This document shows, one piece after another, positions 32,201 through 64,000 of a stretch of DNA of 64,000 nt. The stretch comes from a virus. The notes under the pieces were generated by a model. It saw only the letters and a program-made list of their open reading frames with translations. It was not told the origin of the DNA and did no database searches. The position numbers were made by a program, and so were the translations under genes. The stretch covers positions 1 to 64,000 of the IMG/VR virus record IMGVR_UViG_3300033516_000084; one strand, given 5' to 3'. Positions within the stretch are counted from its first letter, which is position 1, and each line of letters opens with the position of its first letter.

Positions 32201-34751
32201 CGTTAGTCACGGCATGAAATATAGAAACTCCGTCTTTCAACCCAGCTACACCTAAGGCTACGGTACCGATAATTCCGTCAAAAACACCTAGCTCATCCCC
32301 TACCGCTATCAGGTCGTTAATAAACGCCGCTATTTCAATACCTACGCCAATAAATCCGTCAACAATAGTCCCCAAGGACCTTACATTATCGGAGGCCAGT
32401 TTGGCCACAGATACTCCCATTTCTGTAAGCTCTGAGGAAAACTTCCTAACTTCCTCACCTGTAGACTTGGCCACATTCCCGGCTTTACCGGTGGCTTTTC
32501 CGTATTTATCTACAGCCTCCCCCGTAAGGTCAGTAGATTTGGCTATGGCATCAAAAGACTTCAGAAGGAAGGTGGCCTCATCTACCAGCGCACCGTAGGC
32601 GGGTAAAAGTTGTTTGCCTAAACTGTCTGCTAGGGTCTTGGTGTACCGTTCTAGAGAGCCTGCCTTTTTACCCACTGCCTCCATTGACTGTTCATAAGCC
32701 CCGGACAGTTTAGCGGCTTCAATCAAGGCCGCATTATTTACGGCCAATATCTTTTCTTGCTGTGAAAGGGCCGTTGATGCCTTTCCTACAGAGATTGCGT
32801 ACTTATTTTGGGCGGCTTCTATGTCAACAGCCAATCCCATGAACCGCATACCCATAGTATCCAACTGCTGGATATTGACTATCAACCTAGCAAAGGTTTG
32901 GGAGGAACCTTCTCCGGTAACAACAGCCAAATCTTGGGCAGCGCGGGCTAGGCGTTCCACATTGGATGCCGAACCCTCAGACTGGGGACCTAATGGTAGG
33001 CCAGCCTGAATCATCTTGGTCATTGAGTCAGCGGCATCTTGGGTGGTGATACCCTGCTTCTCTACGGCCTTCTGAAACCCTTTAATCTCCTTCTCAGAGT
33101 ACCCAGCATTCTGACCAACCACTTTAAGAGTAATACCCAGCACTTCTGTTCTAGCCGCATACTCTGCGGTCTTGGCTACACCATAAACAGCGGCTAGGGA
33201 CATTAGAGTACCGGCCAAGTCTTTTAATTGACCTTTTACAGAGCCCACCGGGTCTTTTAGGGCCTTTACAGAGCCCAACACATCATTTAATCCCCCTTTT
33301 GCTTTACCTGCCCCGCCACCAGCAGCGGTTAGCGCACCACCCATGGCACCAGCACCCCCTGCTACTGAAGACAAGGAGCTAGCCACATCTTGTGAGGTAC
33401 GGGCAATGGCTGTCATAGCCTGTGCATTACTCAGGGCCGCGCCTGATGCGGTTGCCAGTGCCTGTGCTGAACTACGTTCTGCGGTAGCCAAGCTCTCAGC
33501 GGATACAGCAGCAGACTCTGCGCTTGTGGCAGCGGTAGTTAGGGCCGTAGCCGCACTTGTAGCTGAAATTGCCTGCCCCTCTAAGGCGGTAGCGGTGGCA
33601 GTGGCAGAAGTGGCGGCACTCTCTGCGGAAACTGCCAGTGATTCAGAGGAAACGGCTGTAGCCTGTAAGGACGTAGCTAGGCTATTGGCCCCAACGTCTA
33701 GGCCTCCTAGGGCGGTGGCGGTGGCAGCAGCGGCTGTCGCAAGGGACTGGTCTGCTGTAGCCTTAGCTCTTGCTGCTACAGCAGCCGCTTCCAATTGAGT
33801 AGAAGTTGTAGTTGCAGCGGTTGCCTGGGACTGCAATGTGGTTGCTGCTGTAGTTGCAGCAGTAGCCGCATCAGCATCAGAAGCCGCTTTGCTTTTTGCA
33901 GCAACAGCGGCACTTTCCATTGACGTGGCTGCATTGTTTGCGGAAACCGCTAGTTCTTCTGCCGCTTTTGCAGCAGATACAGCAGCAATGGCGGCGTTAT
34001 TATCTGTCACAGCCATTGCCTGGGACGCTTCAGCCTTGGCCTTGGCTGACTTTGTAAATGACGAAACAATACCACCAAGTATTGAATTACCAGAGATAGA
34101 AGTTTGTAAGGCCTTAGCCTCAGCATCTAGGGCGGTAGCATTGGAGTTGGCAGCAGTGGCTAAAGTTTTATAAGCAGTTGCTGCATCCTGGGCACTTTTA
34201 CCGGATGCGAATAGGGCGGTGGCCTCGTCCTGCATGGCCTTGGCCGTGGCGGTCATTGTCGTAGCCAAGGAGTTGGCAGCGACATTTGTACCACCTAGGG
34301 CGGCGGCATCCTCCCTAGCCGCTGTAGCCAGTAGTTGGTAGGCGTTGGTTGCGGTCTGGGCCTTAGCAGCCGCATCTGTGGACGATGTAGCACTGGTCTG
34401 CATCGTCTTGGCCTGCTCAAGCATGGCCTTTGAGTTTGCAGTAGCCGCATCAGCCACGTTACGTAGAGTAGTAGCGGCTTCTTGAGCGGTAGCAGTTAGA
34501 CCAGCGTTAGTATTGGTAGCAGCGGATGCGGCGGCGGCATTAGCAGCTACCTGTAGGGCCGCAGCATTGGCCGCAGCACCCATATTGGTCATCCCCGTGG
34601 ACAGGGATTGTGTAGCTGTAGTTGCGGACGTTATACCGGCACCGGCTGTTGACCCCGCAGTACCTGCTCTGGTTATTGAATCAATAACCTTTTGCAGGTC
34701 TGTCAGACCCTCGACAAGCAGTTTAATCTTAATTTCAAGGGTGGATGCCAT
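17214..34751 (-). CDS. Giant tape measure protein (5845 aa)
   Basis: Position after the tail tube and chaperone genes; Ala-rich helical N-terminus; TMP core (LARAAQDLAVV...QQLDTMG); C-terminal FAxGG...DTVPAMLTPGEFV motif typical of TMP C-termini. Confidence 0.9.
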   Translation of the reverse strand: MASTLEIKIKLLVEGLTDLQKVIDSITRAGTAGSTAGAGITSATTATQSLSTGMTNMGAAANAAALQVAANAAAASAATNTNAGLTATAQEAATTLRNVADAATANSKAMLEQAKTMQTSATSSTDAAAKAQTATNAYQLLATAAREDAAALGGTNVAANSLATTMTATAKAMQDEATALFASGKSAQDAATAYKTLATAANSNATALDAEAKALQTSISGNSILGGIVSSFTKSAKAKAEASQAMAVTDNNAAIAAVSAAKAAEELAVSANNAATSMESAAVAAKSKAASDADAATAATTAATTLQSQATAATTTSTQLEAAAVAARAKATADQSLATAAAATATALGGLDVGANSLATSLQATAVSSESLAVSAESAATSATATATALEGQAISATSAATALTTAATSAESAAVSAESLATAERSSAQALATASGAALSNAQAMTAIARTSQDVASSLSSVAGGAGAMGGALTAAGGGAGKAKGGLNDVLGSVKALKDPVGSVKGQLKDLAGTLMSLAAVYGVAKTAEYAARTEVLGITLKVVGQNAGYSEKEIKGFQKAVEKQGITTQDAADSMTKMIQAGLPLGPQSEGSASNVERLARAAQDLAVVTGEGSSQTFARLIVNIQQLDTMGMRFMGLAVDIEAAQNKYAISVGKASTALSQQEKILAVNNAALIEAAKLSGAYEQSMEAVGKKAGSLERYTKTLADSLGKQLLPAYGALVDEATFLLKSFDAIAKSTDLTGEAVDKYGKATGKAGNVAKSTGEEVRKFSSELTEMGVSVAKLASDNVRSLGTIVDGFIGVGIEIAAFINDLIAVGDELGVFDGIIGTVALGVAGLKDGVSIFHAVTNAVFGAVIDVMGDVIKVFGYFIGLVPGLGDIGASIQEVGDKWKLAGNNIIDRGEKIIQNMAEGNSATMKFMGAVQQATIVLGDFGKAGNIVMLTKEMALLQEATVRNSLTFQDLAKANTLVTDQTVKLITQTKLSKEDLEKLITTAMSAGVVLPKQFQNIVSAMEALKVKAAEVKKSVDTIGTGTNIKDLTDQTNQLQRAVSDGAISASLASVKMLQLDNSQKVIAATTKLTTKEVFEFSKAVSAVGAILQTKFDEAMKGMGSNMSELKTGVEAKSAAIVASLETIAGSVLATGNTFSLYFEKALDQTKNVSMLEGLGKAVDAVREKGNNLLNIGELKAGGEAIQQAAIASVQLAQKFDEVFAAQLKAVSTKNEWDILIGSVVRLGSEGKISSDAIVVATDQMIIKLRQMSPEYIAVGKAIEALEPVAKALDTQLKLINETVGKTAAQAEASYGAMSKGFEQLSKLAGDFTKTALSEIEAYYKQQDAKITASATSATEADKRKLESFINCENDKIAALTKGADAQAGFDAKAAAAAKSALDVKLAALTQEEIKVGEALGKKLTSQATHDQQIADLALKKKNLLNDFNSKTTQDKITALESRKASYDQYINALMAKEAELLNQIKSNDEAVKQLKMSSADLIRSMEKGAMKDAEKYYANVSDLAKKQSELVAAAAKGDTKVAEKLYGDVTSLAQTLTAGYSENGKVIVAATDGARRGGDAVAEGAAALATAYANSNSSINSGLNTVIGNLSQMRSMSAGVVDKLKELRTSLESGIKGNISLNSADAMQKAKDLQALLGKQEYVKSVKLKVDEATEALNVMRADVEKGGPFKLHPVVTAVEAALDNIRTDLSLPMEMRVSAAQALKDVRAVTLAIEETAKMKAIELTIKDNAKDVEASVTGLKAKVLDLEKGGTVTIKAETAATQTAIEAVKAADANLKALLEKEKKLVVGSKEAIATIDAAKTAKESLDKALDLQKTINVDTSALKLAMADVMVKQKEFDDAVKAKKELELSGANASAAIETVKTKQKELGMALATELSLKIGIDTATNELNKITTQSTTMQGAVGLLTVVKVDVNDALKNVNSVKDAKDALDKAMLNTPAMVVITDKVNTDLAAIKLIQEEIKKPVPVGLTTEQATERTNTLQAKLVALEAQAKKDLAIKATIEGEVEVNLVEKALKGVVVQQDTVNGKTTIVKVEGEPAIAGIKKGLEGASSAINTINGQTVAPSVNTMPIDGFISKVQSALDWWRKLGEAKGGIDDTFPMPNLPKKPDSPNAPETSSDVNDYFPLKKPSEPKKPVAPTPEEVSRKAREAAQDVKDADTIAASIKALKQLNGPTPAEVEAANAAKIAAADKANPDLAKTPVNKPKPKPTPDATGLAPGESGSRTGMPSMHQDSGKYVPPASDSSPSNRNNQTGNKTPSKAAEDPSKTIFKVVDSDGKVTYSNQRPSADAKPVDLSKPMDLSKPKPEAAPLPPIVTQDQRDDEAGRPRRGPVEVGPKGPAERMADAVNRPPADALGTWYDEKMRVDASEAKNNQTLAAQAKANGYKPTVLDNLKASKSVPQDQNNPSQYNPVTPPVQSIAPKASEPSPQFPLEGNAKQVADATLATAKKLKKDVAAEMPIPAPVTTDAPEQAKAIDTALKGIPDATPKVAVDDNDVSPAIAGVNKDIATVEPTVPVDIAATSNMGPVAQAANVAAASVPTKINTDFMGNPKSAEEAASGANLAIASVPVETEAKISGASDVPGKVDLSNAALAAMPPITPVKIETATNAPEVAQTSTEAVTGVPDVTPKINPDDSAVGPAVAASDTAMGAAKGAEPAIEPDTSGVAAAVSASDTALDAAKGADPAITPDTSAVQPSVAASDTALGAAKGADPAITPNIDAVSPAVTSSDTALGAAKGAEPAITPNIDSVAPAVTASDTTIAAAHGATPAITPNTDAVSPAVAASDTALAAAQGASPDIIPDTTAVQPAIAASDAAVTAAQGATPDIIPDTTGVQPAVDASNAAVTAAQGATPDIIPDTTAVQPAVDASNAAVGAAQGATPDIVPDTTAVQPAVDASNAAVTAAQGASPAITPDITAVVPAVAESDAAMGAAQDAAPAIIPDTAAVGPAVDSVNAALGTVKSDTTATVTVSSNDGQVVPAVVTSLGSIPDSETVDISATSTVEPVAAAATAAVEAVPDLATVDIAATSDVPDKAEEATTALRDIPPEVTTEMNASGDLVEGAIAAADAAKAIPTETNTDINGTDNLSPTVTTAQGAVSSLTGTTVSLDGTDNVSPVVSTAQGSVSGLTGTSVSLDAVDNVSPPAWAAKASVDAVPDKTVTLTGVADMAQVEAAPAKLTAVEDESATLTITENSSEVVSTVQSALGGLSTSSQHQVNDNASEAAGNINALSGMNTSSTHTIHIVKVEDNKTGGEAGMVEYTGGSLTAIGSGSSSSSSSSSSGSNTYSGPSSSSGLSGVDVVGMSGSAPSEFARGGSVNFPRMTTGVVPGSGFGDTVPRTLESGSFVLRNSAVGKYGSNLLNQFIGYAVGGQVQPQEVAYYARGGSARPVSAMLTPGEIVISPRMVAKYGTNFFNNINNSSMAPSALAGGRVRKFATGGEVDLTPGQKDEIYQARAAFDKRLQDTYNNEVEEITKAATRTVYFSDIGAAFRPDPTIAINKRLAELKEDFEAMKSRVNAQRAADPEEVGHYATGGSTDAPANTEVEKPVDMSVFKRAEAYIEAVQPMVAQHIRQSEGPAGSTSLGFVSRSEASWYGGADGGTSYGEELNFLKEQVFQPSRKPKASDFLRAEAILNKWKGYLPTVVGHSSASPQKFRIADIEEGIESSVKNYATGGKVMPPLKSYGTAVDENGKPVPLSDVKDPSRASQFATGGIALPKLSTPENPDVKPSLASNTGDVLKDRDLLKALEAKAKAGTLSPEESSIIEGLLGKYKTAFPELFSSGSMPDQSMLLKALEGFQGFADGGMASVGGPNGWKPLTDKGEAVGNNAKNALTPYSPAPDKVPEFFPSPSKDPKAWAAEDAAAERIYSTALSARKARLESNLAAALATAPSEEETIRRNYASTYEAPLTAITTAYTTAKSARASSRSGKEEPKQEYKVIPGIPTFYLPPPPEALGTFDEAMIEAQNPLDSKGNHKDPKKVQAKTANFADLTYQQSLLTPMTNAEIMVASGQKAPQTWDEIIADEKALDKANAGKGITPVRKFAIGGVVSQLDDLNSAYDDAKAKGDDQKAGELYQKIREEEEKNRAAGVSVQSIARLGATGPGMLGAKGPGQLGATTDSGTGYKARIGWTQPSSTGGYQARLGDPAKFATGGYAGSNSWWPADTNGRAYFESEYANQKAYQNHSAKYNRTVVDNEAKRDDGLRKHYEKSPVLTGSPGFVGIGDPGHSNNYTRGIGFTGDPGFGRAGVGEDVGEVSRNARGSGFTGDPGFGRAVDFDYLNESRNRRATPPILGPIRGYAFGGKVTPGSMGGTGYDDRWAREHPKDGKAPAKFATGGAVGSYNSDLSALKTAHNEDERKARIELAKAETKIQKDSSESSRVAAVTLDSTKKAAVRSFDFIKSEDQIQQSAASNKIDKDYKDLVDSGARAVETVKTNLEIARQESSRLNDVALTTAYQSIETGYTRQVTDTGVQTVRSKDQIALESARAVRDAETTASTEYKQAMQMDDPTSRSSAISTLMDTLTQTKESISSGTTAQVERADVAYSDTVAQLGVTKGYSIQDATTQLAAKTIEDSYQIDLQRKRVDSENEAKKVEDARLVARAHTDLSDSFDTKRQSDSSKFRFDNETLDINDQARATELVIQTNNAITSLKEDDKARSIEAQYQFELGKKEITAKYNGFATGGEVQAFATGGQVDSLFFEEGGSSDSSSFGAGLITNQSSWSGQDSAAYTAYTKARSRSPQGDLQSVDDSYDKSKSTREAERLTWLKSTGKDNIINRSLARPAFAEGGEVDYHAEGGSVGADAKKVEDALRHQREEHVQSERSTIQSGKDKQAADTKRGELEAFNGITTNEEKLAAEKQERTDTLSAGFDGSKAEVLELEDLVAQNRFDLANKDLEDDFSKLGSNPSDEDLYNFEKNKADLASAYQKATGAKASARAKPAYAEGGEVEYHAEGGPVGYYAEGGAVTDKDLVDAFNEVQRKSWIAKKAAKDALIKADTEANRVADVATAKSTADLDRTHKATVDAYDKELYKSRTAQDKNFTDTKKAGSTAHDKTEKDYRDADSETQRLAQLAYNTSATGMTTSYTRESDAASTSHKNTLRDNDTAYARTVAAGTKDYDKILSDSTESYANTARLDGIAHAKDTKNNDKSYSETTRLSKLSYDTGLSNNDRSFAANLNEEQIANSKASSDAATSYAETVSAGKIAKEKTVSDSNDAFKESGRKGDLAYAVSLSGIGTSFDRGVAAAGVQKERALSQLSAATDTAKGDANKVASAAMSKANKIEDPVAKAEAIKALKTDLVIKDTEASKAMTVGEASADQAYTQSVQDLTTTKTTSTEDVTTVNKARISEDGIAKSQQEESVEKEYQAKVASDEKSYQSSETARALDYSAKLAQELRAHNESDKEAGIALAEKNTEDGIQYKNAATEIEETYAAKAKEDKVQQDKDKAATDLAYKATYDQGKTAHLDSEEDIETSYKDQTSARYKTYSDNKTDLTTGYVAQKTEREVQYGITQRTVDNDYEAKKKEDIAQNTSALDSLQTAYTENMDSEAVQYKEGQRQIAEDASSRDTEAAVQLTNGLQEIEDTYKAQDIEDRAQLELSRKELRESKVGLAMGGKVVYPEATDGYSVFATGGDVGGESAAPDTGALPGLATDVGDAATIVSKWKDTLPSIFSTKGLATGESVFDLLKGLKGFAEGGNIAASDTVPAMLTPGEFVVPQDVVRNFGSDFFSKIAAAGSPMDWFRDHAKGYATGGMVDNASFPSPLSLQNADRIGSQFDFMTMPAMPITQGFAFEKGGLVNAPAPSQIVQVDLRSNGKQVSVEVASNKSSDLLALLGELKSRSM
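21917..22032. repeat. 35-bp direct repeat inside the TMP (encodes GFTGDPGFGRA twice)
   Basis: cagccctaccaaatcctgggtctccggtaaatcca at 21917-21951 and 21998-22032. Confidence 0.9.
25860..26860 (-). repeat. Tandem ~84-nt (28-aa) repeat array inside the TMP
   Basis: About 12 units of P(D/A)I(I/T)PDTTAVQPAV(D/A)AS(N/D)(A/T)A(V/L).AA(Q/K)GA(T/D/E); DNA units are near-identical around 26000-26330. Confidence 0.9.
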
Positions 34752-53064: not shown

Positions 53065-53318
53065 AGCATAGTCCTGTTGGGGTATGGGTAGATTCTACTA
53101 TGCATACACCTACCTGCTACCACAGTAATTCTGTACGTCTTCTAGCTTGCTGTGATAGGCGCATTTTCAACTTTCACCCACTTCGCTGCCCTACAGTGGA
53201 TTACATACTGGCAACATGCACTTGTCGAACTCTTTGAAAGATGGCTACTTCTAGGCCTACTTCCTGAGTTATCAAAACTTTTGAGAATATATTTTCAGCC
53301 TACTGCAATTGATTGCAG

Positions 53319-53534
53319 TTACTCTTTCTCAAGGCCTGCCGGGAACAAGGAATCCAAAGTTTCGGGCGACAGGTCTTTGCAAAATTCGCGGGCGAAGTTG
53401 ACACCAAGACCAACAGGGACAATGCTACCGTCATTATCTACTTCCTGTTTCACTGGCAGGTAACCACGGTCTGGTGGGGCTACGGGGCCAGGGGTACTTA
53501 CAACAGGGATACCTTTGAAAACATTTTTGAACAT
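53319..53534 (-). CDS. Small hypothetical protein (71 aa, MFKNVFKG...)
   Basis: AAGGAG RBS and a canonical promoter directly upstream. Confidence 0.65.
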   Translation of the reverse strand: MFKNVFKGIPVVSTPGPVAPPDRGYLPVKQEVDNDGSIVPVGLGVNFAREFCKDLSPETLDSLFPAGLEKE

Positions 53535-53583: not shown

Positions 53584-53610
53584 GCCTTTTTTACACAAAT
53601 TTCGTGTAAA

Positions 53611-56242: not shown

Positions 56243-56548
56243 TTACAGGCTGCGGGTCGTTACGACAATATCACTGTCTTCCCATTGGGCATTAATCCAC
56301 ACCCCCGAATCGAGGTGTTCCATCCTGCCAAGTTTTCCGAGTAGCCGGGTGTGCCGGGTTTCTGAAATGCTCTCAAATTGGATTGTCCACCCTTTACCGG
56401 CTTTGAATACCTGACGTTGCTTAGCAAGCACCGCTTCCTTCAACCAATTTTGGCGTGTGGGGTGCAGGGTGAGTGTAGCCGACGCTTCCGTCACCACCTC
56501 CTCGGGGAACAGCATCAACGTGGGGAAGGGGGTGATGGCATTAAGCAT
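56243..56548 (-). CDS. Cassette hypothetical protein, paralog of 61490-61732
   Basis: Preceded by the cassette promoter/RBS; shares PT...WL..A.L..QR.VF..G.GWTIQ.E.IS.T.....GK.GR....DSGVW..AQ with 61490-61732. Confidence 0.8.
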   Translation of the reverse strand: MLNAITPFPTLMLFPEEVVTEASATLTLHPTRQNWLKEAVLAKQRQVFKAGKGWTIQFESISETRHTRLLGKLGRMEHLDSGVWINAQWEDSDIVVTTRSL

Positions 56549-56630
56549 TTTCAGTCCTTTGAAATTGGTTGGTAAGCCTGTATTATATATCAGTTTATCA
56601 AGGTTTACAGGCTTTTGGAAAATATATTTT
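56549..56630 (-). promoter_or_regulatory. Repeated early expression cassette header (copy a)
   Basis: AAAATATATTTT...AACCTTGATAAACTG-ata-TATAAT...GGCTTACCAACCAA-TTCAAAGGACTGAAA-ATG. Confidence 0.85.
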
Positions 56631-56862
56631 AGGCCCGTTCGCAGTGCAGGCCACCTGCCTTACCCAGGCTAAGAACGTAGTCCGGGTACTCATTGATTTG
56701 GTCAAGGTCCTTGGCGATATGAATCGCGGCTTCATATCCCTGACCGTAGCGGTGTAGTTCTGTAGCGGCCTTCAGGAATACCTCCTTGGCCTCACCGATA
56801 CTACGGTATTTGTTGTAGTAGGGGTAGCCACACAGCGGGGCCATCAGGAAACAAGCAGCCAT
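56629..56862 (-). CDS. Cassette hypothetical protein (77 aa)
   Basis: Cassette header upstream; TAA stop overlaps the next AAAATATATTTT box. Confidence 0.75.
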   Translation of the reverse strand: MAACFLMAPLCGYPYYNKYRSIGEAKEVFLKAATELHRYGQGYEAAIHIAKDLDQINEYPDYVLSLGKAGGLHCERA

Positions 56863-56944
56863 TTTTCAGTCCTTTGAAGTTTGTGGTAAGCCTGTAGTAT
56901 ATCGCAGTTTGACAAGGTTTACAGGCTTTTGGAAAATATATTTT
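56863..56944 (-). promoter_or_regulatory. Repeated early expression cassette header (copy b)
   Basis: Same layout with TTGTCAAACTG-cga-TATACT; 32 bp identical to copy a. Confidence 0.85.
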
Positions 56945-58137
56945 CACCCCAGCCTGAGGCCCAACAGGTCTTCTAGCTTGAATGCATGGTGTCTTCTCCA
57001 GCGTTTAGCAAGACCGAAGAATGCGGTCATGTCAGTCGAGGCCAAGGTATCCACGTCCGGGTGCCCTAGCTCTTTTGCCCGTTCGCCCAACCACTTGGTT
57101 TGATCACGCATGTCATCGTCAAACGAGGTGGTGGTTACAGCCTTTTCCTTGGAACAGTACCTCTTTTTTGCGTCACGGTAGGGATTGGCTTTTAGTACGG
57201 ATGAGGGACTACTAGGGTAACTCTTGAACATCGACATAATCTCTTCTTCCTCCGTGGTAACAGTAATTCCATGGGCCTTAACCACGTCCCAAGCCTCCTT
57301 ACTGAGAGAATTTTTGTCCGGTACAACAATGGACTGAATATCCTTGACAGATACGCCTCCATGAACTTGAGCCTCCATGTATGCAGCGGCCCGTGCCTCA
57401 TTTACTGTTTTTGCCTCTGAAACCCTTGAGGCCACCGAATCTACATTAAATGCCCCTCTATAAACGTCCAGCCCAATCACACTGGCTAACTTTGGGTCAG
57501 TTACCTTTGAGGGCGGGTAAGCCACTTTGGTGTCGTTGTTGGAGGTCATCCCATTTACTGAGTCCCCACCGGTAAAGGTGGTGCGATCACGAACCTCGGG
57601 TTTGAGAGTCACCCTACTTCTTCCGTAGACCACAGCCCCAGAATTAGCCATCTCCATGGGTTTAGCCCCAGCACTGTGCAACACCCCATAGATTATGCTA
57701 TGGGGTTTTTTAGCATCACCAAACATCAGCTTTTCGGCATTGGCCATTGCCTCTAAGATCGAGGGATTCTTAGACTGTAGCTCCTGGGAGGTCTTAAAAC
57801 CTCCACTTGTAAGTATGGTATTCAAGTCATCCTTGCCCGTATGTATCACCACCTTGGCATCCTTCATCAGGGCAGAAAGGCTTTCCTGGGCTTTGTGTAG
57901 ACCCTCTACATCTACCTCAGCTAGCTTATGCATCATGTTGGCCCGCTCCGCTAGCAAGTCCTTGTTTATGGGTGGCTCATTTTTTGTAGCCCCCTTTTTA
58001 GGGGCACCAAACATACTCACAAAGCCAGCCTTATCGCCTGTAGAGAACCTGCCTAGCCCGTCGTGATACGGGTTGGCCTTTACTATGGTTTCCTGGGCGG
58101 GCAACAGGCTCTTATTTTGGAACAAAAAGCTATACAT
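56944..58137 (-). CDS. Putative head-packaged protein with DUF3626-like (possible ADP-ribosyltransferase-fold) domain
   Basis: Likely start MYSFLF at 58137; KANPYHDGLGRF; IH......IL.SG.FKTSQE...IYG.L...YG...V.LKPEVR.RTTFT.GDS...YMEAQVHGGV...DI; second KANPY module near the C-terminus. Confidence 0.6.
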   Translation of the reverse strand: MYSFLFQNKSLLPAQETIVKANPYHDGLGRFSTGDKAGFVSMFGAPKKGATKNEPPINKDLLAERANMMHKLAEVDVEGLHKAQESLSALMKDAKVVIHTGKDDLNTILTSGGFKTSQELQSKNPSILEAMANAEKLMFGDAKKPHSIIYGVLHSAGAKPMEMANSGAVVYGRSRVTLKPEVRDRTTFTGGDSVNGMTSNNDTKVAYPPSKVTDPKLASVIGLDVYRGAFNVDSVASRVSEAKTVNEARAAAYMEAQVHGGVSVKDIQSIVVPDKNSLSKEAWDVVKAHGITVTTEEEEIMSMFKSYPSSPSSVLKANPYRDAKKRYCSKEKAVTTTSFDDDMRDQTKWLGERAKELGHPDVDTLASTDMTAFFGLAKRWRRHHAFKLEDLLGLRLG

Positions 58138-58314
58138 GGTAGTGCGGTGGATTAGGGTGTTAGAGTCTCCATTGTCCCACGCTAAGGCCCTCATAGCACG
58201 CGCTAATCCGGTGCTGGCATATCGGTAAAGGAGTCTATGCAGTGGGCGTGTATAGCCATGTTTTCCCAGATGGTCAACTGCCCCTGGGGCGTGGGGCGTG
58301 GGGCCGGGGTTTGG

Positions 58315-58524
58315 TTATGCGAGGGCGCGAGACTCAGCAGCCTTGGCTTGTTTTTGGTAATACAAAAAGTCTTCAGTACCAACCACGGCATTGGCTGTCT
58401 GGATGTAGTAATCAGCGGCATCGGAATAGGCTGCGAAGATAGCCCAGTTCTCATCGCAGGCGTAGAGACCAGCGGCTGAGTTGCAGTCGTTGGCCTTACA
58501 CATGTAATATTCGTAATCAGTCAT
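58315..58524 (-). CDS. Small helical cassette protein, family A copy 1
   Basis: MTDYEYYMCKANDCNSAA...VGTEDFLYYQKQAKAAESRALA; paralog of 58741-58959 and 63169-63375. Confidence 0.8.
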   Translation of the reverse strand: MTDYEYYMCKANDCNSAAGLYACDENWAIFAAYSDAADYYIQTANAVVGTEDFLYYQKQAKAAESRALA

Positions 58525-58589
58525 TTTCAATCCTTTGAAGGTGGAGGGTTTTGGTTGGTAAGCCATTAGTATAACACAGTTTATCAAGG
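58472..58589. repeat. 118-bp exact direct repeat (second copy 63323-63440)
   Basis: Identical promoter, leader and first ~17 codons of the two MTDYEYY genes. Confidence 0.9.
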
Positions 58590-58616
58590 ATTACATATAT
58601 TTTAAAAATATATTTT
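58525..58616 (-). promoter_or_regulatory. Repeated early expression cassette header (copy c)
   Basis: AAAATATATTTT...CCTTGATAAACTGTGtTATACT...GGCTTACCAACCAA...TTCAAAGGATTGAAA-ATG. Confidence 0.85.
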
Positions 58617-58680
58617 CAGCCCAGGGTAGTGCATGGTGGGGCTATTTTCTCTGGCACTGGCAGGGCTTGCACTTGGGGGG

Positions 58681-58742
58681 GGGGTAAGGCTTTATTACAT
58701 CAGGTTTTTACCGTTTGTCAAGATATTTACAAAATATATTTT
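58681..58742 (-). promoter_or_regulatory. Variant header with canonical -35 and no ORF of its own (copy d)
   Basis: AAAATATATTTT-gtaaatatc-TTGACA-16 nt-TGTAAT-aaaGCCTTACCCCCC. Confidence 0.6.
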
Positions 58743-58959
58743 AGAAAGCGAGAGCACGTTCCTCAGCCGACCAGGCTTGTTCTTGGTAGTACGAAAAGTC
58801 TTCAGTACCGATGGATGCGGCGGCTTGCTCAAAAGAAGCAGCGGCTTGTTCATAGGCACTGGCCGGTTTGGGTTGATCTTCCAACCGGTATTTGATGGCG
58901 GCAGCCGCACATTCTTTAGCTTTGCCAGTGTAATACTGGAAATCAGTAATCTCAGCCAT
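58741..58959 (-). CDS. Small helical cassette protein, family A copy 2
   Basis: MAEITDFQYYTGKAKECAAAA...IGTEDFSYYQEQAWSAEERALAF; GGAG RBS. Confidence 0.8.
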   Translation of the reverse strand: MAEITDFQYYTGKAKECAAAAIKYRLEDQPKPASAYEQAAASFEQAAASIGTEDFSYYQEQAWSAEERALAF

Positions 58960-59222
58960 TTTTCACTCCGTTGAAAGGTTAAGGGGTTATTGAAGCCAAT
59001 CCCTTGTGTTTTTTAGCCAGATCACCCACCACACCGGGACGGTAGGGTTTTTTTCGGCTTAGGTAATCAATTCGTCGCTCACTCCTTTGAGTTGGTTAAA
59101 AAAGGGGGGTATCACCCCCGGTGGCCGTTTATGTATGCCACTTTACCCCCCCGCCTTCTACTCAGTTTCCACTCGGCAGGGGGGCCGCGAGGAAGCGTTG
59201 AGTCCAATTACTTCATTTTCAT

Positions 59223-59313
59223 GTACTCCTTTTTAGGTTAGTGGGTTTTTGCTGGGATGCAGCTATTATAGCGCAGTTTGACAAGGTTTTACACGTTTTT
59301 GAAAATATATTTT
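59223..59313 (-). promoter_or_regulatory. Repeated early expression cassette header (copy e)
   Basis: AAAATATATTTT...AACCTTGTCAAACTG-cgc-TATAAT...AAAAGGAG; followed only by ATG AAA ATG AAG TAA. Confidence 0.8.
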
Positions 59314-59348
59314 CAATCCTCGTATTCGTGTTCTTCCTCAGCAGCCTA

Positions 59349-59741
59349 TTAGTAGTCAGACTCAAAAATGGTTGAGATTTGGGCGTATCCGGTGACATAG
59401 ATCATCCCATCTGAATACCCGAAGGTCGTTGGCGCGGTGATCACCAGCTTGTGCATCGACTGCTCGACACCCTCACGGGTTCCGTATTCGACTGGTACCA
59501 GACCAATCAGGCCAGCATCCACCCCGTACTCACGTCCGTGGTCATCATCGAAGCTGCCATCACCGTAAGCGGTGCTGCTGGCGTACACCTTGAAGCCCTT
59601 GATCGCCCCCTCTGGCTGCTCAAAATACTCACAGGATTCCAATAGGTCACTCCAGTCCTCTGAGGGCACGGCATAGCACGGGTCACCTAAATAATACTCA
59701 CCAGCGGGGATAACGATTTCAAAATTTTTGGTTTGTGACAT
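59349..59741 (-). CDS. Cassette hypothetical protein (130 aa; GDPCY / YGDG / VDAGLIG motifs)
   Basis: Start MSQTKNF after the cassette RBS; the motif set recurs in phage hypothetical proteins. Confidence 0.8.
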   Translation of the reverse strand: MSQTKNFEIVIPAGEYYLGDPCYAVPSEDWSDLLESCEYFEQPEGAIKGFKVYASSTAYGDGSFDDDHGREYGVDAGLIGLVPVEYGTREGVEQSMHKLVITAPTTFGYSDGMIYVTGYAQISTIFESDY

Positions 59742-59828
59742 TTTCAATCCTTTGAAGCTGTTTGGTTGGTAAGCCTTGAGTATAGCACGGTTTATCAAGG
59801 TTTTTACACGATTTGAAAATATATTTTT
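59742..59828 (-). promoter_or_regulatory. Repeated early expression cassette header (copy f)
   Basis: AAAATATATTTT...AACCTTGATAAACCGTGcTATACT...GGCTTACCAACCAA...TTCAAAGGATTGAAA-ATG. Confidence 0.85.
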
Positions 59829-60171
59829 CTACTTCTGGCTGGCGTAGTACTTCTGGCGGGCACGAATCTCTTGGTTAGCTAGGTCGATAATGTCTTCATG
59901 GCCGTTGTCTGTGATGTACTTGGTAGCTCTAACTACCCCCTTAGGGCGGCTAGTGATGCTATGGGCAAATCCTTGTACCTGGCAATGACACTGACGGTAT
60001 TTCTGCTGGCCAAGGCAACGATGTGTGCGGCCTCTTGTTCTTCAGTGCGTGGGGGTAGGAGGCAAAAACTCCTGGGGATGCATGGTGTGGTCTGTGTGGT
60101 TCATAATAATCATTATAGGGGTCGGTAGTTTACTACCAACCACAGCCCCGTTTCCGGGGCGTTGGCGTGGC

Positions 60172-60525
60172 CTAGGACTCGTCTTGTTCTTCAGCGGGTT
60201 CGCTGGAAAGGTCGGTCCAGTAAAGGATTATGTCACGACCCATACTGTCTTGTTTGAAGTCGAGCAAGACTTCCACCGCTTTATTGAAGTCGTAAAGGGA
60301 GCGATCACCCTTACCATCATCTACCCCTCGTACCAGATCATCGGCCATTTTCTTGACAACCTCGGTAATGAGGTTCATGCAGTTGGATAATGAGCCGGTA
60401 ATGCCTACGCACTCGGAGCCGTACATCCCACGTCCGCTGTAGGAGTCGCGGAACTGCACGTCCTCGGTTTCGCCGCACAGGGCTTCAAGGTTTACGAGCA
60501 GAGTGGCAGTGGTGTTTGCATTCAT
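60172..60525 (-). CDS. Cassette hypothetical protein (117 aa; YSGRGMYG..C / DSMG motifs)
   Basis: Cassette header upstream; hairpin gccccggaaacggggc downstream. Confidence 0.8.
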   Translation of the reverse strand: MNANTTATLLVNLEALCGETEDVQFRDSYSGRGMYGSECVGITGSLSNCMNLITEVVKKMADDLVRGVDDGKGDRSLYDFNKAVEVLLDFKQDSMGRDIILYWTDLSSEPAEEQDES

Positions 60526-60526
60526 C

Positions 60527-60628
60527 TTCAGTCCTTTGAAAGTTTGGGGGGGGTAAGCGGCTTTTTAGGGCCTGGGGTAATTATATATCAGTTTGCCAAG
60601 GTTTTAACTGATTTTGAAAATATATTTT
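60527..60628 (-). promoter_or_regulatory. Cassette header (copy g); 102-bp exact repeat of 62170-62271
   Basis: Identical from AAAATATATTTT through TTGGCAAACTG-ata-TATAAT, C8 tract and TTCAAAGGACTGAA; an extra AAAATATATTTT box lies at 60639-60650. Confidence 0.88.
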
Positions 60629-60738
60629 TCAGGCTTTGAAAATATATTTTCGCCCACCTACGGCTGTCTGTACCCCAAGTGCATGGTGGGGGCTAAAAAC
60701 CATGCCCCGGATTTCCGGGCTTTGGTCTGGGGGCAGGA

Positions 60739-61053
60739 TTAGACGAATCCAAGAACGGCAGTGACATGGCCTTCTGCGTTGCGGATAGCGTCCTTTCCGG
60801 TGTCGGGGCCGACAACATCTGGGCGTGTGCCGCGAAGTTCGCCCAAGACCATGCCGCTGACAACATAGATCGTGTCGTCAGCCGGTGCTGGCAGGTCGAT
60901 GACTGGGCCGATTACTTGGCGTGTGAGCCGGATGCCGCCAATGTCAGGGCAGGGTGTACGGGTGACTGAACAGCGGGCGATGATGCCCGACTTTTCCAGC
61001 GTGCCGAGGCCGACAACGGTGATGGCGTGGGGTGTGCAGTTGATGAAGTTCAT
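60739..61053 (-). CDS. Hypothetical protein (INCTPH.I...PDTG..AIR family)
   Basis: Start MNFINCTPH after AAGGATTGAAT; hairpin gcccggaaatccgggg downstream. Confidence 0.75.
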   Translation of the reverse strand: MNFINCTPHAITVVGLGTLEKSGIIARCSVTRTPCPDIGGIRLTRQVIGPVIDLPAPADDTIYVVSGMVLGELRGTRPDVVGPDTGKDAIRNAEGHVTAVLGFV

Positions 61054-61121
61054 ATTCAATCCTTCTAGGGTTGTGCAATTGATTGCAGCCCATTTTGTGG
61101 GCCGCGAGTAGGGTAGTGAGG

Positions 61122-61337
61122 CTACGCCTTCTTGGTGAGTTTTGGGGCCTGTTTAGGGGCTGGCGTGGTGGGTTTTGGAGTCGGAATCGCTTTCACTATG
61201 TTGAATGACCGGATGGCCCCCACGGTATTCACCGCCAATCCGCTGCAAGCGGTATCCCGAAACTCGGTAGTACCGTCCGGGTGCTTGCACTGGTAAATGT
61301 TTGCGCTGGCTGCGCTGGACGCGAGGGATTTACGCAT
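61122..61337 (-). CDS. DUF4124-like small protein
   Basis: ASANIYQCKHPDGTTEFRDTAC motif; cassette header upstream. Confidence 0.6.
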   Translation of the reverse strand: MRKSLASSAASANIYQCKHPDGTTEFRDTACSGLAVNTVGAIRSFNIVKAIPTPKPTTPAPKQAPKLTKKA

Positions 61338-61422
61338 TTTTCAGTCCTTTGAAGGTTTTGCTGGGATGCCGCTAGTATAGCGCAGTTTGCCAATGTTTTA
61401 ACTTATTTTGAAAATATATTTT
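61338..61422 (-). promoter_or_regulatory. Repeated early expression cassette header (copy h)
   Basis: AAAATATATTTT...AACATTGGCAAACTG-cgc-TATACT...TTCAAAGGACTGAAAA-ATG. Confidence 0.85.
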
Positions 61423-61459
61423 CAACCCACCACCGGGTGCATGGTGCGGCCCTGGGTGC

Positions 61460-61484
61460 AAAAAAACCCGGTTGTCCGGGCGGG
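61460..61484 (-). terminator. Intrinsic terminator
   Basis: gcccgg-acaa-ccgggttttttt. Confidence 0.75.
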
Positions 61485-61489
61485 GGCGG

Positions 61490-61732
61490 TTAGCGTAGCG
61501 GCTGAGTGCCGGTGATGATAGACCCCGAGCGGGTGTATTGAGCGGTTACCCACACCCCGGAGTCCTCTTGTTGGGTGCGTCCGATTTTGCCGATGCAGCG
61601 GCGAATAAGCGTGTCCGATATATGTTCGGATTGGATTGTCCACCCACGACCCGGTTGGAATACCCGGCGTTGCTCCTCAAGCAAGGCCAAAAAGAGCCAC
61701 TGGGCTTTGGTGGGTGTGTCGTTTGCTTGCAT
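61490..61732 (-). CDS. Cassette hypothetical protein, paralog of 56243-56548
   Basis: Start MQANDTPT after AAGGACTGCA; alignment as given for 56243-56548. Confidence 0.8.
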   Translation of the reverse strand: MQANDTPTKAQWLFLALLEEQRRVFQPGRGWTIQSEHISDTLIRRCIGKIGRTQQEDSGVWVTAQYTRSGSIITGTQPLR

Positions 61733-61822
61733 TGCAGTCCTTGGTAGTGGTTGGTAAGCCTTGATTATACGCCAGTTTGACAAGGTTTTACTCATTTTTT
61801 TGGGTGGTAGAAAAGATATTTT
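61733..61822 (-). promoter_or_regulatory. Repeated early expression cassette header (copy i)
   Basis: AAAATATCTTTT...AACCTTGTCAAACTG-gcg-TATAAT-caaGGCTTACCAACCA. Confidence 0.8.
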
Positions 61823-61881
61823 CGCCCTCTGTGGCTGTAGTGGACTCCTCCTATGGCTTGCATGGTGCGTGCCTGGGGCAC

Positions 61882-61906
61882 AAAAAAGCCACCGACAGGT
61901 GGCTAG
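61882..61906 (-). terminator. Intrinsic terminator
   Basis: agccacc-tgtc-ggtggctttttt. Confidence 0.8.
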
Positions 61907-61916
61907 TTGGGAGAGC

Positions 61917-62168
61917 TTAGACTCTTACGGTGTCTTCGCTGTAGCCGAAGCTGCGGAGGTGTTTGCAGTCATTTTTGCGGCCAGTTGCCGGGTTAATCTT
62001 TGCAAAGACCCAGCCCTTGCAAGAGCAACGCCTGTTAGTGGTGTCCACCCGGTACTCGGCAGTGCCGGAGGCACTGGGAATTGTGAAGACCGCATAGCTG
62101 GGCTGACCAGCGTAAGCGCTGTTCACGATTTCGGTGGAGATAATCCGGGGGGTGTAAGAAGTAGCCAT
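61917..62168 (-). CDS. SWIM-type zinc-finger protein
   Basis: YRV......CSCKGW...........CKHL = CxC-xn-CxH SWIM signature. Confidence 0.75.
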   Translation of the reverse strand: MATSYTPRIISTEIVNSAYAGQPSYAVFTIPSASGTAEYRVDTTNRRCSCKGWVFAKINPATGRKNDCKHLRSFGYSEDTVRV

Positions 62169-62169
62169 T

Positions 62170-62271
62170 TTCAGTCCTTTGAAAGTTTGGGGGGGGTAAG
62201 CGGCTTTTTAGGGCCTGGGGTAATTATATATCAGTTTGCCAAGGTTTTAACTGATTTTGAAAATATATTTT
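62170..62271 (-). promoter_or_regulatory. Cassette header (copy j); 102-bp exact repeat of 60527-60628
   Basis: Direct sequence identity to copy g. Confidence 0.88.
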
Positions 62272-62599
62272 CACTTCTTCTGGCTGGCGGCATCCTCTCC
62301 TCAAGGGTGTTGCATGGTGCAATTAATTGCACTCGTCCACACCCAAAATGCGTGGGTATTCTCCACCAAAACGTGGCTGTGTTCTGGTTTTCAGTGCTTA
62401 AAAATTAGGCAGAAAACACGGGGTTTTGACTTCCAGTGCTACGGCTTGCATAGCACTAATTGAAGCGCACCCAAATCGCGTTGGGGGCAGCAGGTGGCAG
62501 TCGGTGGGAGATATTAGGACAGGTGCTTATTTTTTTGTGTGCCGGGCTTGTACACCCCTTGCCAGTGCAATTAATTGCAGTTGGCAAGTGCAATTAATT

Positions 62600-62878
62600 T
62601 CACATCAGGCGCAGGTAGTTCTTGATCGTCCTCTTGCGGGTAGGGGTGTCGCTAAGTCTCACCCAGCCCTCGGTGTACTTCATATCCTCTGCAAAGGCGG
62701 CAATAAAGTCGCGGGGGGTAAGCCAGCTTTTACCTGCATTGTTTTTGTGGTCTCCCAATATGTCGGCACCCGCTAGTTGCAGTTTGTCGATCTTCTCCAT
62801 GGCCCTGGCCTTGGCATCATCAAGCAATTCCGTAACCCTTTTTTTCAAATCGTCCATAGATTCTTGGTCGTAGTCCAT
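62600..62878 (-). CDS. Hypothetical protein (92 aa, MDYDQESM...)
   Basis: The protein-like part of ORF 62600..63022 starts at Met49; weak RBS. Confidence 0.6.
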   Translation of the reverse strand: MDYDQESMDDLKKRVTELLDDAKARAMEKIDKLQLAGADILGDHKNNAGKSWLTPRDFIAAFAEDMKYTEGWVRLSDTPTRKRTIKNYLRLM

Positions 62879-62958
62879 GAGCTTCTTTCGTGTGTGGGTG
62901 GTGGGGTAGGGTGGGCAGGTGGACTGGGTGTCGCTGTGGGCCTTTGTAGGCCCTTGGA

Positions 62959-63081
62959 CTACTTGCGTACAAACCCGGATATGCAAAATTTTCCGCGTGG
63001 CAGGTTGTAGTCGAACTCTCACGTCACGTCAATTTCCTCATCGTTGATTGTCACGGTTTCAACGCTTGTATATGTACTCAT
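62959..63081 (-). pseudogene. Decayed cassette ORF
   Basis: After header copy k: MSTYTSVETVTINDEEIDVT*EFDY... with in-frame TGA at codon 21. Confidence 0.55.
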
Positions 63082-63165
63082 TTTGCATTCCTTTGCTTTT
63101 TGGTTGGTAAGCCTTGATTATAGCGTAGTTTTTCAAGGTTTACCATCTGTTTGAAAATATATTTT
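63082..63165 (-). promoter_or_regulatory. Repeated early expression cassette header (copy k)
   Basis: AAAATATATTTT...AACCTTGAAAAACTA-cgc-TATAAT-caaGGCTTACCAACCAA...AAAGGA. Confidence 0.82.
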
Positions 63166-63168
63166 CTA

Positions 63169-63375
63169 TTATGCGAGAGCGCGGTACTCAGCCGACTGAG
63201 CTTGTTCTTGCAGGTAGGAAAATTCGGGAGTGCCCACGGCTCCAGCAGCACGTGTGTAATAGTGGGCAGCGTCCATCCACACGCTGGCGCTGGCATGGTC
63301 ATCCGACATGCTGGCATCGGCGGCGGCTGAGTTGCAGTCGTTGGCCTTACACATGTAATATTCGTAATCAGTCAT
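63169..63375 (-). CDS. Small helical cassette protein, family A copy 3
   Basis: MTDYEYYMCKANDCNSAA...VGTPEFSYLQEQAQSAEYRALA. Confidence 0.8.
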   Translation of the reverse strand: MTDYEYYMCKANDCNSAAADASMSDDHASASVWMDAAHYYTRAAGAVGTPEFSYLQEQAQSAEYRALA

Positions 63376-63468
63376 TTTCAATCCTTTGAAGGTGGAGGGT
63401 TTTGGTTGGTAAGCCATTAGTATAACACAGTTTATCAAGGTTTTAACTGCGGTTGAAAATATATTTTT
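63376..63468 (-). promoter_or_regulatory. Repeated early expression cassette header (copy l)
   Basis: Identical to copy c from the CCTTGATAAAC box to the ATG. Confidence 0.85.
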
Positions 63469-63506
63469 CAACCCCCTGAGGCAGTGCATGGTGCGGTCTG
63501 GGGCGT

Positions 63507-63530
63507 AAAAAAAGCCCGGACAATCGGGCT
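63507..63530 (-). terminator. Intrinsic terminator
   Basis: agcccga-ttg-tccgggctttttt. Confidence 0.7.
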
Positions 63531-63537
63531 GGTGGGG

Positions 63538-63723
63538 TTAGGTGTGTTTAGCGCAGGGTGTCCACCCGGTGGTCAGGGTCACCATCTTCTTTTCGGTGCG
63601 TGGTGCGGGCCTGCCGTTGATGTGGCGAACCACGCAGGTAGGGCAGATGCTGGTGTACCGGTAGCGTACAGCAGCATCTGCTGTGGGCCCTTGCGGGTTG
63701 ATTATATCGTGTATTGTTGGCAT
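63538..63723 (-). CDS. Small hypothetical protein (61 aa)
   Basis: Conserved TTCAAAGGACTGAA-ATG RBS; terminator downstream. Confidence 0.65.
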   Translation of the reverse strand: MPTIHDIINPQGPTADAAVRYRYTSICPTCVVRHINGRPAPRTEKKMVTLTTGWTPCAKHT

Positions 63724-64000
63724 TTCAGTCCTTTGAAAAAGTGAGATAAACCCACCCGGTGGGTGGGTGGGTGTGGGGATTAAGAAGGGATAAGGTTAGC
63801 GGTAACCCAGGCTTTAGCAGCAGTGAGGTTTTCGAGTTTGGGGGAAATAGGGTGGAGCGCATTATTGCGGATTGTGGGGCCGCAAACCTCGCAGTTAGGG
63901 GAAGCAGGGTAGAGGAAAATTTTGGCGTGGATTTCACCGGAGTCGGTTGAGCACACTTGGATTTGCGGGTCGCTGGTTGGGTAAAATGAAAAAAGGGCGC

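Follow-up and report, generated by a model that had tools for sequence, protein, structure and literature searches.

A probable PeSL-like array of one-gene cassettes in a metagenomic relative of Stenotrophomonas phage DLP5

Promoter-early stem-loop (PeSL) cassettes are regulatory elements of T4-type myoviruses (Arbiol, Comeau and Krisch 2010, PMC2839356; Comeau et al. 2014, PMC4122927), and repeats of this type have been shown experimentally to shuffle genes (PMC2839356, PMC4122927). Promoter-terminator shuffling cassettes have so far been described essentially for this one group of phages. Here we describe a locus in the virus record IMGVR_UViG_3300033516_000084 of IMG/VR, the first 64,000 nucleotides of which form the window examined; at 56.2-64.0 kb a series of small genes on the minus strand stand behind copies of one repeated sequence, which we refer to as the header. 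A preliminary description of this DNA had named the PeSL elements of T4-type phages as the analogue, and the published accounts (PMC2839356, PMC4122927) show that this was the right one to choose. We think it likely that a hyperplastic early region here holds an array of PeSL-like regulatory cassettes, with the headers serving as crossover homologies.

Between 56.2 and 64.0 kb there are 11 intact header copies and one decayed copy (80-105 nt), each placed before a small gene. Repeat finding recovered a 72-nt unit in 10 copies and a common leader and ribosome-site block as repeat families; aligning the 12 copies gave the one-gene cassettes with a shared header that had been proposed earlier, and all of the header elements listed at that time are present on the minus strand where they had been placed. 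The array had been given as 56243-63740, and while it is indeed present there it is not confined to that interval, with further headers from 64089 to 100964. The record is linear and 100,966 bp long (genome G000), so that about 101 kb were available for analysis; the array continues to 70.5 kb, and about 20 header copies occur genome-wide. Headers of this type (class I) lie outside the range first noted at 64089, 64586, 66384, 70503, 84662 and 85106, with variants at 86856, 96242 and 100964.

The AT box of the header, AAAATATATTTT, is present in 12 exact copies in 56619-63467 and in one copy with a single mismatch at 61811, when about 0.1 would be expected in the whole window; its 12 bp form a perfect palindrome, which in several copies reaches 14-18 bp. 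As a reference we used the 17-nt E. coli UP-element consensus AAAWWTWTTTTNNNAAA as quoted in PMC2412878. Scanning with it gave 13 matches with no more than one mismatch (three perfect and ten with one) where 0.14 were expected, and 11 of the 13 lie inside the array on the minus strand, the AT box with its linker matching at 17/17 positions in three copies and at 16/17 in eight. The distance from the end of the AT box to the -10 hexamer is 31 nt in all copies, placing the AT box at about -55 to -44, and the -10 itself is TATAAT or TATACT throughout. Downstream of it are a conserved initial transcribed sequence, GGCTTACC, a CA-rich leader, and then a hairpin of 4-5 bp with an AAGGA ribosome site in its loop, just 5′ of the ATG. 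The header thus reads as a putative sigma70-type promoter with an UP-element-like AT box, a weak -35 and a near-consensus -10. Two other arrangements were considered and rejected, one pairing TTGAYA as the -35 with GGCTTA as the -10, since GGCTTA has no A at position 2, and one placing a divergent plus-strand promoter across the palindrome, since its spacer would be 13-14 nt. A structured riboregulator in the leader was rejected as well, the header leaders folding no more stably than shuffled sequence (z +0.2 to +0.8), which leaves the 4-5 bp hairpin alone; an Rfam search of 53-64 kb at E≤0.1 found no family.

The unit had originally been drawn as starting at the AT box. The rest of its anatomy is as described, but the repeated unit often begins further upstream, with an intrinsic terminator and a second element, CACCATGCA. 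Terminator-like hairpins followed by a T run lie directly upstream of five headers in the window (at 59119, 60719, 61481, 61904 and 63530, that at 60719 being weak), and another lies at ~64170, just past the window end; terminators are not present in every unit. The CACCATGCA element has 10 minus-strand copies in 56.9-64.7 kb (56983-64647), located between terminators and AT boxes and 14-46 nt upstream of the AT box, and one further copy in the rest of the genome; three copies follow a variant of a genome-wide 14-mer.

Two repeats singled out in the preliminary description proved to be exactly as reported. The first, 60527-60628 and 62170-62271, precedes unrelated genes; its 102 identical nt open with the first base of the AT box and close 2 nt short of the ATG, position -1 being a mismatch. 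The second, 58472-58589 and 63323-63440, has 118 identical nt that begin at the core box and extend as far as codon 17 into two paralogues, which then diverge and are just 58% identical overall. A third pair, 59739-59800 and 84599-84660, stands in front of unrelated genes 25 kb apart and is identical for 62 nt, core box included, up to the ATG, and units 64089 and 63442 have about 170 nt in common at roughly 90% identity, from the terminator through the AT box and leader, except around the -10. Because the identity spans non-consensus positions of the linker and stops at the ATG of unrelated genes, the copies are homologous rather than convergent. Of the four blocks, one starts at the AT box, two start at the core box and one starts upstream of the terminator, and these varied start points suggest homologous exchange anywhere in the header rather than at a fixed site.

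Three segments of the header each group the copies differently, and a PHI-type test over 32 informative sites gave 0.627, against 0.910 ± 0.043 in 5000 permutations of site order (p<0.0002). On the evidence of these alignments, the header copies are shown to descend from one another and to exchange segments by homologous recombination or gene conversion, and they therefore evolve in concert within a genome. The doubled, truncated AT box and linker at 60629-60650 looks like the scar of an unequal exchange. Pseudogenes and empty cassettes indicate turnover, and the empty and decayed units reported earlier were all recovered: 58617-58742 has no open reading frame (ORF), 59208-59313 has an ORF of four codons, 59829-60171 is frame-broken and 62959-63081 has an in-frame TGA.

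A mechanism that would account for these features is as follows. Small, mostly orphan genes would each be packaged as an autonomous transcription unit behind a common composite cassette that consists, in order, of a terminator and CACCATGCA (in five cases), the AT/UP box, a weak -35-like TKWAAA, the conserved CCTTGAYAAACTG block, the -10, the leader, the ribosome-site hairpin and the ATG. The AT box would be a site for the C-terminal domain of the RNA polymerase alpha subunit, host sigma70 RNA polymerase would fire strongly from each header early in infection, and terminators would insulate some of the units. The homologies of 60-170 nt could then act as portable crossover sites for the gain, loss, duplication and reordering of genes, with no need for a dedicated site-specific recombinase.

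The phage is a tailed, metagenomic, distant relative of Stenotrophomonas phage DLP5 (Delepquintavirus). Its major capsid protein is 61% identical to the DLP5 counterpart, and it has the DLP5 gene order, with a terminase-like gene, a truncated dikinase, phosphatases and an intein-rich DNA polymerase A, followed by the portal and head genes; nearly all of the window genes are on the minus strand. Megablast of the array region against GenBank phages gave no match, and there is no close DNA-level relative among them. Five relatives (G001-G005) were recovered through the capsid protein, with capsid identities of 92% for G001 and 72% for G002, G003-G005 being near-complete genomes of 90-96 kb. A sixth, G006, is a 49.9-kb contig that agrees with G001 in sample of origin and in G+C content; it is collinear with G000 from 100.6 to 88.2 kb and is probably an adjoining piece of the same phage as G001. 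A search seeded with the adjacent 760-aa protein recovered no relatives. The RNA ligase gene (64896-65867) was also tried as a route to relatives and was dropped, the 24 loci found having the ligase alone in common and showing neither synteny nor a header. The leader and hairpin were also sought in 185,579 bacterial and archaeal genomes; there was no match, and hence no prophage or clue to the host.

The gap between the DNA polymerase and portal genes is 0.6-2.7 kb in G001-G005 and 18 kb in G000 (71076 to 53064). Within the window, the genes that follow a class I header are all without homologues in G001-G005, whereas three genes of the wider 18-kb block do. A few G001 genes at the polymerase-portal junction are unique to G001, and DLP5 has three small genes there; the presence of lineage-specific genes at this junction in the relatives marks it as a variable spot across the lineage. 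On the portal side, a degenerate header remnant (53284-53330, minus strand), made up of a 14-mer site, an AT box with one mismatch and TTGATAAC, is found where synteny with the relatives breaks off, 230 nt upstream of the portal gene. The preliminary description had asked whether related phages keep the same genes in the same order with no breakpoints at headers; we find instead that the region is lineage-specific and differs in both content and order. It lies between conserved modules, and we infer a causal role for the headers in moving its genes.

G006, the closest relative, offers a second case of the same organization, with about 20 one-gene units behind a repeated header of its own, which has canonical promoter spacing (class II); some of these headers are identical over 55-95 nt before unrelated genes. 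For six genes of the 18-kb block there is a G006 homologue, namely for the 760-aa gene, 64207-64509, a 416-aa gene (its C-terminus), 70111-70437, 69737-70111 and 69121-69312. Their place in the G006 genome is a different one, upstream of the early block, and their order is not the same. An orthologous 108-aa gene (76% identical) has a class I header in G000 and a class II header in G006.

One independent carrier of the class I header was found by a metagenome scan for the -10 and leader. This is a contig of 6150 bp, JFJP01046472.1 (L088), with two class I headers, the first of which is 88/94 identical to the header at 56549-56630; the match extends from 8 nt ahead of the AT box as far as the ATG, with unrelated sequence on either side. 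Searching IMG/VR for exact copies of the AT box together with the core box gave only six chance matches in unrelated AT-rich contigs, and a scan for the ribosome-site hairpin and ATG gave 29 stretches, of which the related ones all come from one record, G006. A further proposal, suggested by the presence of the header at 94% identity in the unrelated DNA of L088, would be that class I headers are mobile regulatory cassettes able to propagate themselves from phage to phage during co-infection, recruiting orphan genes through a phage protein that recognizes the AT palindrome or CCTTGAYAAACTG. They would then form a dedicated capture and expression system and not be a side effect of general recombination; we regard this as improbable.

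Several considerations weigh against an array of cassettes that recombine through their headers. The relatives, at 44-93% amino-acid identity, are too diverged for most rearrangement breakpoints to be placed at the nucleotide level, so that sharp edges come just from L088 and from pairs within the genome. L088 itself holds no core gene by which its overall relatedness to this phage could be judged, and gene conversion among headers could give sharp edges without any movement of genes. G000 is a metagenome-assembled contig whose right end (100950-100966) breaks inside a class I header. The start sites, the timing and the polymerase assigned to the headers are all predictions from sequence. Finally, the hexamer 16 nt from the -10 is TTAAAA or TGTAAA, a match to the -35 at 3-4 of six positions, and the conserved CCTTGAYAAACTG block in the spacer is not accounted for by a plain sigma70 model.

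The matter of gene conversion leads to an alternative that is possible but rather unlikely, namely that the headers are promoters kept alike by conversion and by selection for strong early expression, while the accessory genes turn over by illegitimate recombination in which the headers have no causal part. The change of header class on the 108-aa orthologue in G006 indicates that headers can be replaced in place, a conversion tract would end where homology ends, at the AT box and the ATG, and the HNH endonuclease-like gene at 70531-70830, on the polymerase-side edge of the block, could itself drive insertions. However, conversion involves the same crossovers as the deletions, duplications and circles that arise where direct repeats lie 0.3-25 kb from one another, and the outcomes are hard to separate; moreover, there is the header remnant at the portal-side breakpoint, L088 has unrelated genes directly behind the same header, and PeSL repeats have been seen to shuffle genes in experiments with T4-type phages. 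An array in which the headers act as crossover homologies remains the reading we prefer.

The broken end of the contig raises a different concern, that the position of the 18-kb block or the order of its cassettes is an artefact of assembly across repeats of 60-170 nt. The assembly probably did break at the header repeat at 100964, more cassettes are likely to lie beyond the right end, and in both G006 and G001 homologous genes lie upstream of the early block instead. Nonetheless, the junctions at ~71.1 kb and ~53.1-53.3 kb are in unique sequence and have just a 12-14 nt site in common, all of the relatives have lineage-specific genes at the polymerase-portal junction, and the headers and their identity blocks are independent of cassette order. 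We consider such an artefact very improbable.

The spacer of the class I header is puzzling in its own right. The CCTTGAYAAACTG block within it is invariant in ~17 copies and contains a perfect TTGAYA only 8 nt from the -10. Elsewhere in G000, and in G001, G002 and G006, the word CTTGACAAAC is a true -35, located 16-18 nt from the -10 (class II promoters; in G000 at 53584, 58722, 77650, 79457, 80002, 83447, 89003, 89291 and 95025). CTTGAYAAAC is thus common to both classes, with class I having an UP box added upstream and the word brought to 8 nt from the -10; G001, G002 and G006 have class II only. The displaced -35-like word may have been left over when class I headers arose from class II promoters, with the UP element making good the loss, or it may be the site of a regulator. 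The latter would imply that the class I header depends on, or is shut off by, a phage factor binding CCTTGAYAAACTG and forms a separately timed regulon, similar to the T4 MotA/AsiA middle promoters or to a repressor operator. This would be compatible with a recombining cassette array, and the position of the invariant block, at -29 to -16 where sigma70 needs no sequence, is in keeping with it, as are the weakness of the proper class I -35 and the use of CTTGACAAAC as a true -35 elsewhere. We are doubtful of it all the same: the second L088 header and the copy at 66384 lack the TTG of the block with all else kept, conservation of CCTTGAYAAACTG may reflect common descent and gene conversion, and no regulator was identified in the incomplete genome. 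The combination of a perfect UP element, a weak -35 and the -35 word of the lineage displaced to 8 nt from the -10 presents a small puzzle in promoter recognition.

Hairpin presentation of the ribosome site extends beyond the array. Genome-wide, AAGGA or ACGGA occupies a short hairpin loop at 26/55 candidate starts and at 8/97 control sites, and the stem covaries (UCA/UGA, GCA/UGC, ACA/UGU, CUA/UAG); the hairpin also occurs in G006 and G001, and DLP5 has a related form. These hairpins resemble those bound by CsrA-type proteins; the Pfam CsrA model gave no match to the G000 contig. A second word found throughout the genome is the palindrome GCAATCAATTGC (mostly TGCAATCAATTGCA), which at no more than one mismatch has 38 minus-strand and four plus-strand copies, about one per 2.7 kb, in genic and intergenic positions (for example at 2950, 17202, 38137, 53316, 55935 and 61086 of the window) and in places directly upstream of an AT box. 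It is common to all of the relatives examined, G001, G002, G006, L088 and the cultured DLP5 (L122), the last having 14 copies in 48.5 kb.

The array can be followed along the minus strand unit by unit, in order of coordinate. The first cassette, 56243-56630, has its header at 56549-56630 (AT/UP box 56619-56630) and a 101-aa gene, 56243-56548, that is 50% identical to 61490-61732, the two genes forming paralogue family B. The second, 56629-56944, combines a header at 56863-56944 with a 77-aa ORFan, 56629-56862, whose stop codon overlaps the next AT box. A 416-aa gene at 56944-58194 has no class I header of its own and a weak DUF3626/phrog_8314 match; its 3′ end runs through CACCATGCA into the next AT box, and its C-terminal 87 aa are 59% identical to G006 24492-24749. 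A header at 58525-58616 and a 69-aa gene of family A form the cassette 58315-58616, beside which the empty or decayed unit 58617-58742 retains an AT box (58731-58742), a promoter of canonical spacing, TTGACA-N18-TAATAA, and a remnant of the leader. The adjacent 72-aa gene, 58741-58959, also of family A, has a ribosome-site hairpin and no class I header. An intrinsic terminator-like hairpin and T run at 59105-59119 follows the empty cassette 59208-59313, in which a full header precedes just the 4-codon ORF 59208-59222.

The cassette at 59349-59827 has a header at 59742-59827 and a 130-aa gene (phrog_20074) with homologues in unrelated phages, and the last stop of the decayed gene 59829-60171, the frames of which are broken by stops, abuts the AT box at 59827. 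In the cassette 60172-60650 the header, 60526-60628, is accompanied by the second, truncated AT box and linker described above and precedes a 117-aa gene (phrog_14658). The 104-aa gene 60739-61053 has no class I header and is followed by a weak terminator-like hairpin, 60706-60719. Three further cassettes are 61122-61422, with a header at 61338-61422 and a 71-aa gene with a weak DUF4124 match; 61466-61822, with a header at 61733-61822 (the AT box having one mismatch and an insertion), the 80-aa family B gene 61490-61732 and a terminator at 61466-61481; and 61887-62271, with a header at 62169-62271, an 83-aa gene, 61917-62168, and a terminator at 61887-61904. A 92-aa ORF without a header, 62600-62878, is followed by 330 nt of non-coding sequence (62272-62599) with two variant genome-wide 14-mers. 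The decayed cassette 62959-63165 has its header at 63082-63165 before the broken ORF, and the cassette 63169-63467 has a header at 63376-63467 and a 68-aa gene of family A. Last come a 61-aa gene, 63538-63723, with a hairpin ribosome site, no promoter of its own and a terminator at 63513-63530, and the 3′ part (63780-64000) of an 80-aa gene, the whole of which is 63780-64022, with its class I header, terminator and CACCATGCA past the window end, to ~64200.

The cassette genes are almost all ORFans, and Pfam and PHROG searches with 20 array proteins gave almost no matches. There are two small paralogue families, A (the 58315, 58741 and 63169 units) and B (the 56243 and 61490 genes), neither of which gained a usable lead from a protein atlas look-up. 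For two of the array genes the only homologues are in unrelated phages (T4-like Acinetobacter phages, DLP6, and phages of Aeromonas, Gordonia and Rhizobium). The locus offers about 15 early orphan genes as candidates to be screened for host takeover or counter-defence.

Elsewhere in the genome a number of features deserve mention. The first 1.6 kb of the contig (1-1600) has only tiny ORFs and may be near a physical genome end. A single ORF of 5845 aa in the tail region (window 17214-34751, minus strand), with partial homologues at 31-40% identity in G001, G002 and G003, is extraordinarily long for a tape-measure-like protein. DNA polymerase A (71076-76130; 1684 aa) has intein and HNH insertions, as does an AAA ATPase at 66999-69050, and the HNH endonuclease-like gene at the polymerase-side edge of the variable block, which encodes 99 aa, has a paralogue at 97908-98567. 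In the early region, two large proteins with ADP-ribosyltransferase domains are encoded at 89287-93590, one of them fused to an Acb1 (anti-CBASS) domain, and a histone-deacetylase-like gene and a dCMP deaminase gene lie near them.

How closely the array resembles systems already described can now be considered. The preliminary description had extended the comparison to integrons, and there is a likeness in the single-gene cassettes of unknown or adaptive function and in their high turnover. Unlike an integron, the array has no attI or attC and no integrase match in the 101 kb; in place of one common promoter there is a promoter for every cassette, and the breakpoints are scattered along the header. 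A dedicated capture system of this kind would require the AT palindrome to be the recombination site of an unrecognized recombinase, and we give it very little credence. It is true that the palindrome is perfect over 12 bp and longer in several copies, that the stop of the upstream gene overlaps or abuts the AT box in all five places reported (56629, 56944, 58741, 59829 and 63169), and that one identity block begins exactly there. However, only that one pair bears out the earlier idea of the palindrome as a general cassette edge, the other blocks beginning at the core box or upstream of the terminator; there is no imperfect inverted-repeat site bounding the cassettes, and G006 shows the same cassette behaviour with no palindrome at all. 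Nor did the recombinase that was to be sought in the rest of the genome come to light: Phage_integrase and Resolvase profiles at E≤0.1 had no match in the 101 kb of this incomplete genome, while the same searches found these families in control genomes, and a search of the same 101 kb for YqaJ nuclease was also negative.

The AT palindrome is more simply explained as an UP element, since it matches the consensus and lies at about the right distance from the -10. By our count it is 1-2 bp closer to the -10 than the UP element of rrnB P1. In both the array and E. coli the element is upstream of the -35 position, and binding of alpha to the AT box and linker is predicted from their match to AAAWWTWTTTTNNNAAA (PMC2412878).

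A further likeness is to early promoters of other lytic phages. Those of T4 and T5 are numerous and strong, are used by host polymerase, and are conserved beyond the two hexamers, with an AT-rich, UP-like block at about -40 to -57. The array likewise has extended conservation and an AT-rich block; unlike these promoters, its copies are near-identical over 60-170 nt and mosaic, which points to duplication and conversion and not only to selection for a consensus. T4 also encodes ADP-ribosyltransferases that act on the alpha subunit, which the two ADP-ribosyltransferase-domain proteins of G000 call to mind.

The most extensive parallels are with PeSL elements. Each system combines a terminator stem-loop and a ribosome site with a sigma70-like early promoter, strong in PeSL elements and predicted to be so in the array, that is AT-rich in its upstream part; each recurs many times among small orphan genes where a hyperplastic region separates conserved modules. 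In both, the same element can stand before genes that are unrelated, crossovers are placed between AT-rich part, -10, ribosome site and ATG, and insertions, deletions and replacements distinguish related phages. There are also differences. The sequences are unrelated, and terminators are present in just ~5/12 array units, unlike the PeSL composite; the array alone has a 35-60 nt leader and a hairpin-presented ribosome site within its conserved unit, and an odd conserved block replaces its -35. Mini-circles and crossovers are known for PeSL elements, whereas exchange in the array is deduced from its sequence. As judged from capsid and synteny with DLP5 the phage is not of the T4 type, and we therefore regard the array as an analogue rather than a strict member of the PeSL family. 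Its header is a compact and very strong candidate promoter-leader module, and the header mosaics make up a natural series for studying short-homology recombination in phages. That the same logic, in unrelated sequence, should be found in T4-type myoviruses and in a DLP5-related lineage suggests a general route by which large lytic phages acquire and express accessory genes.

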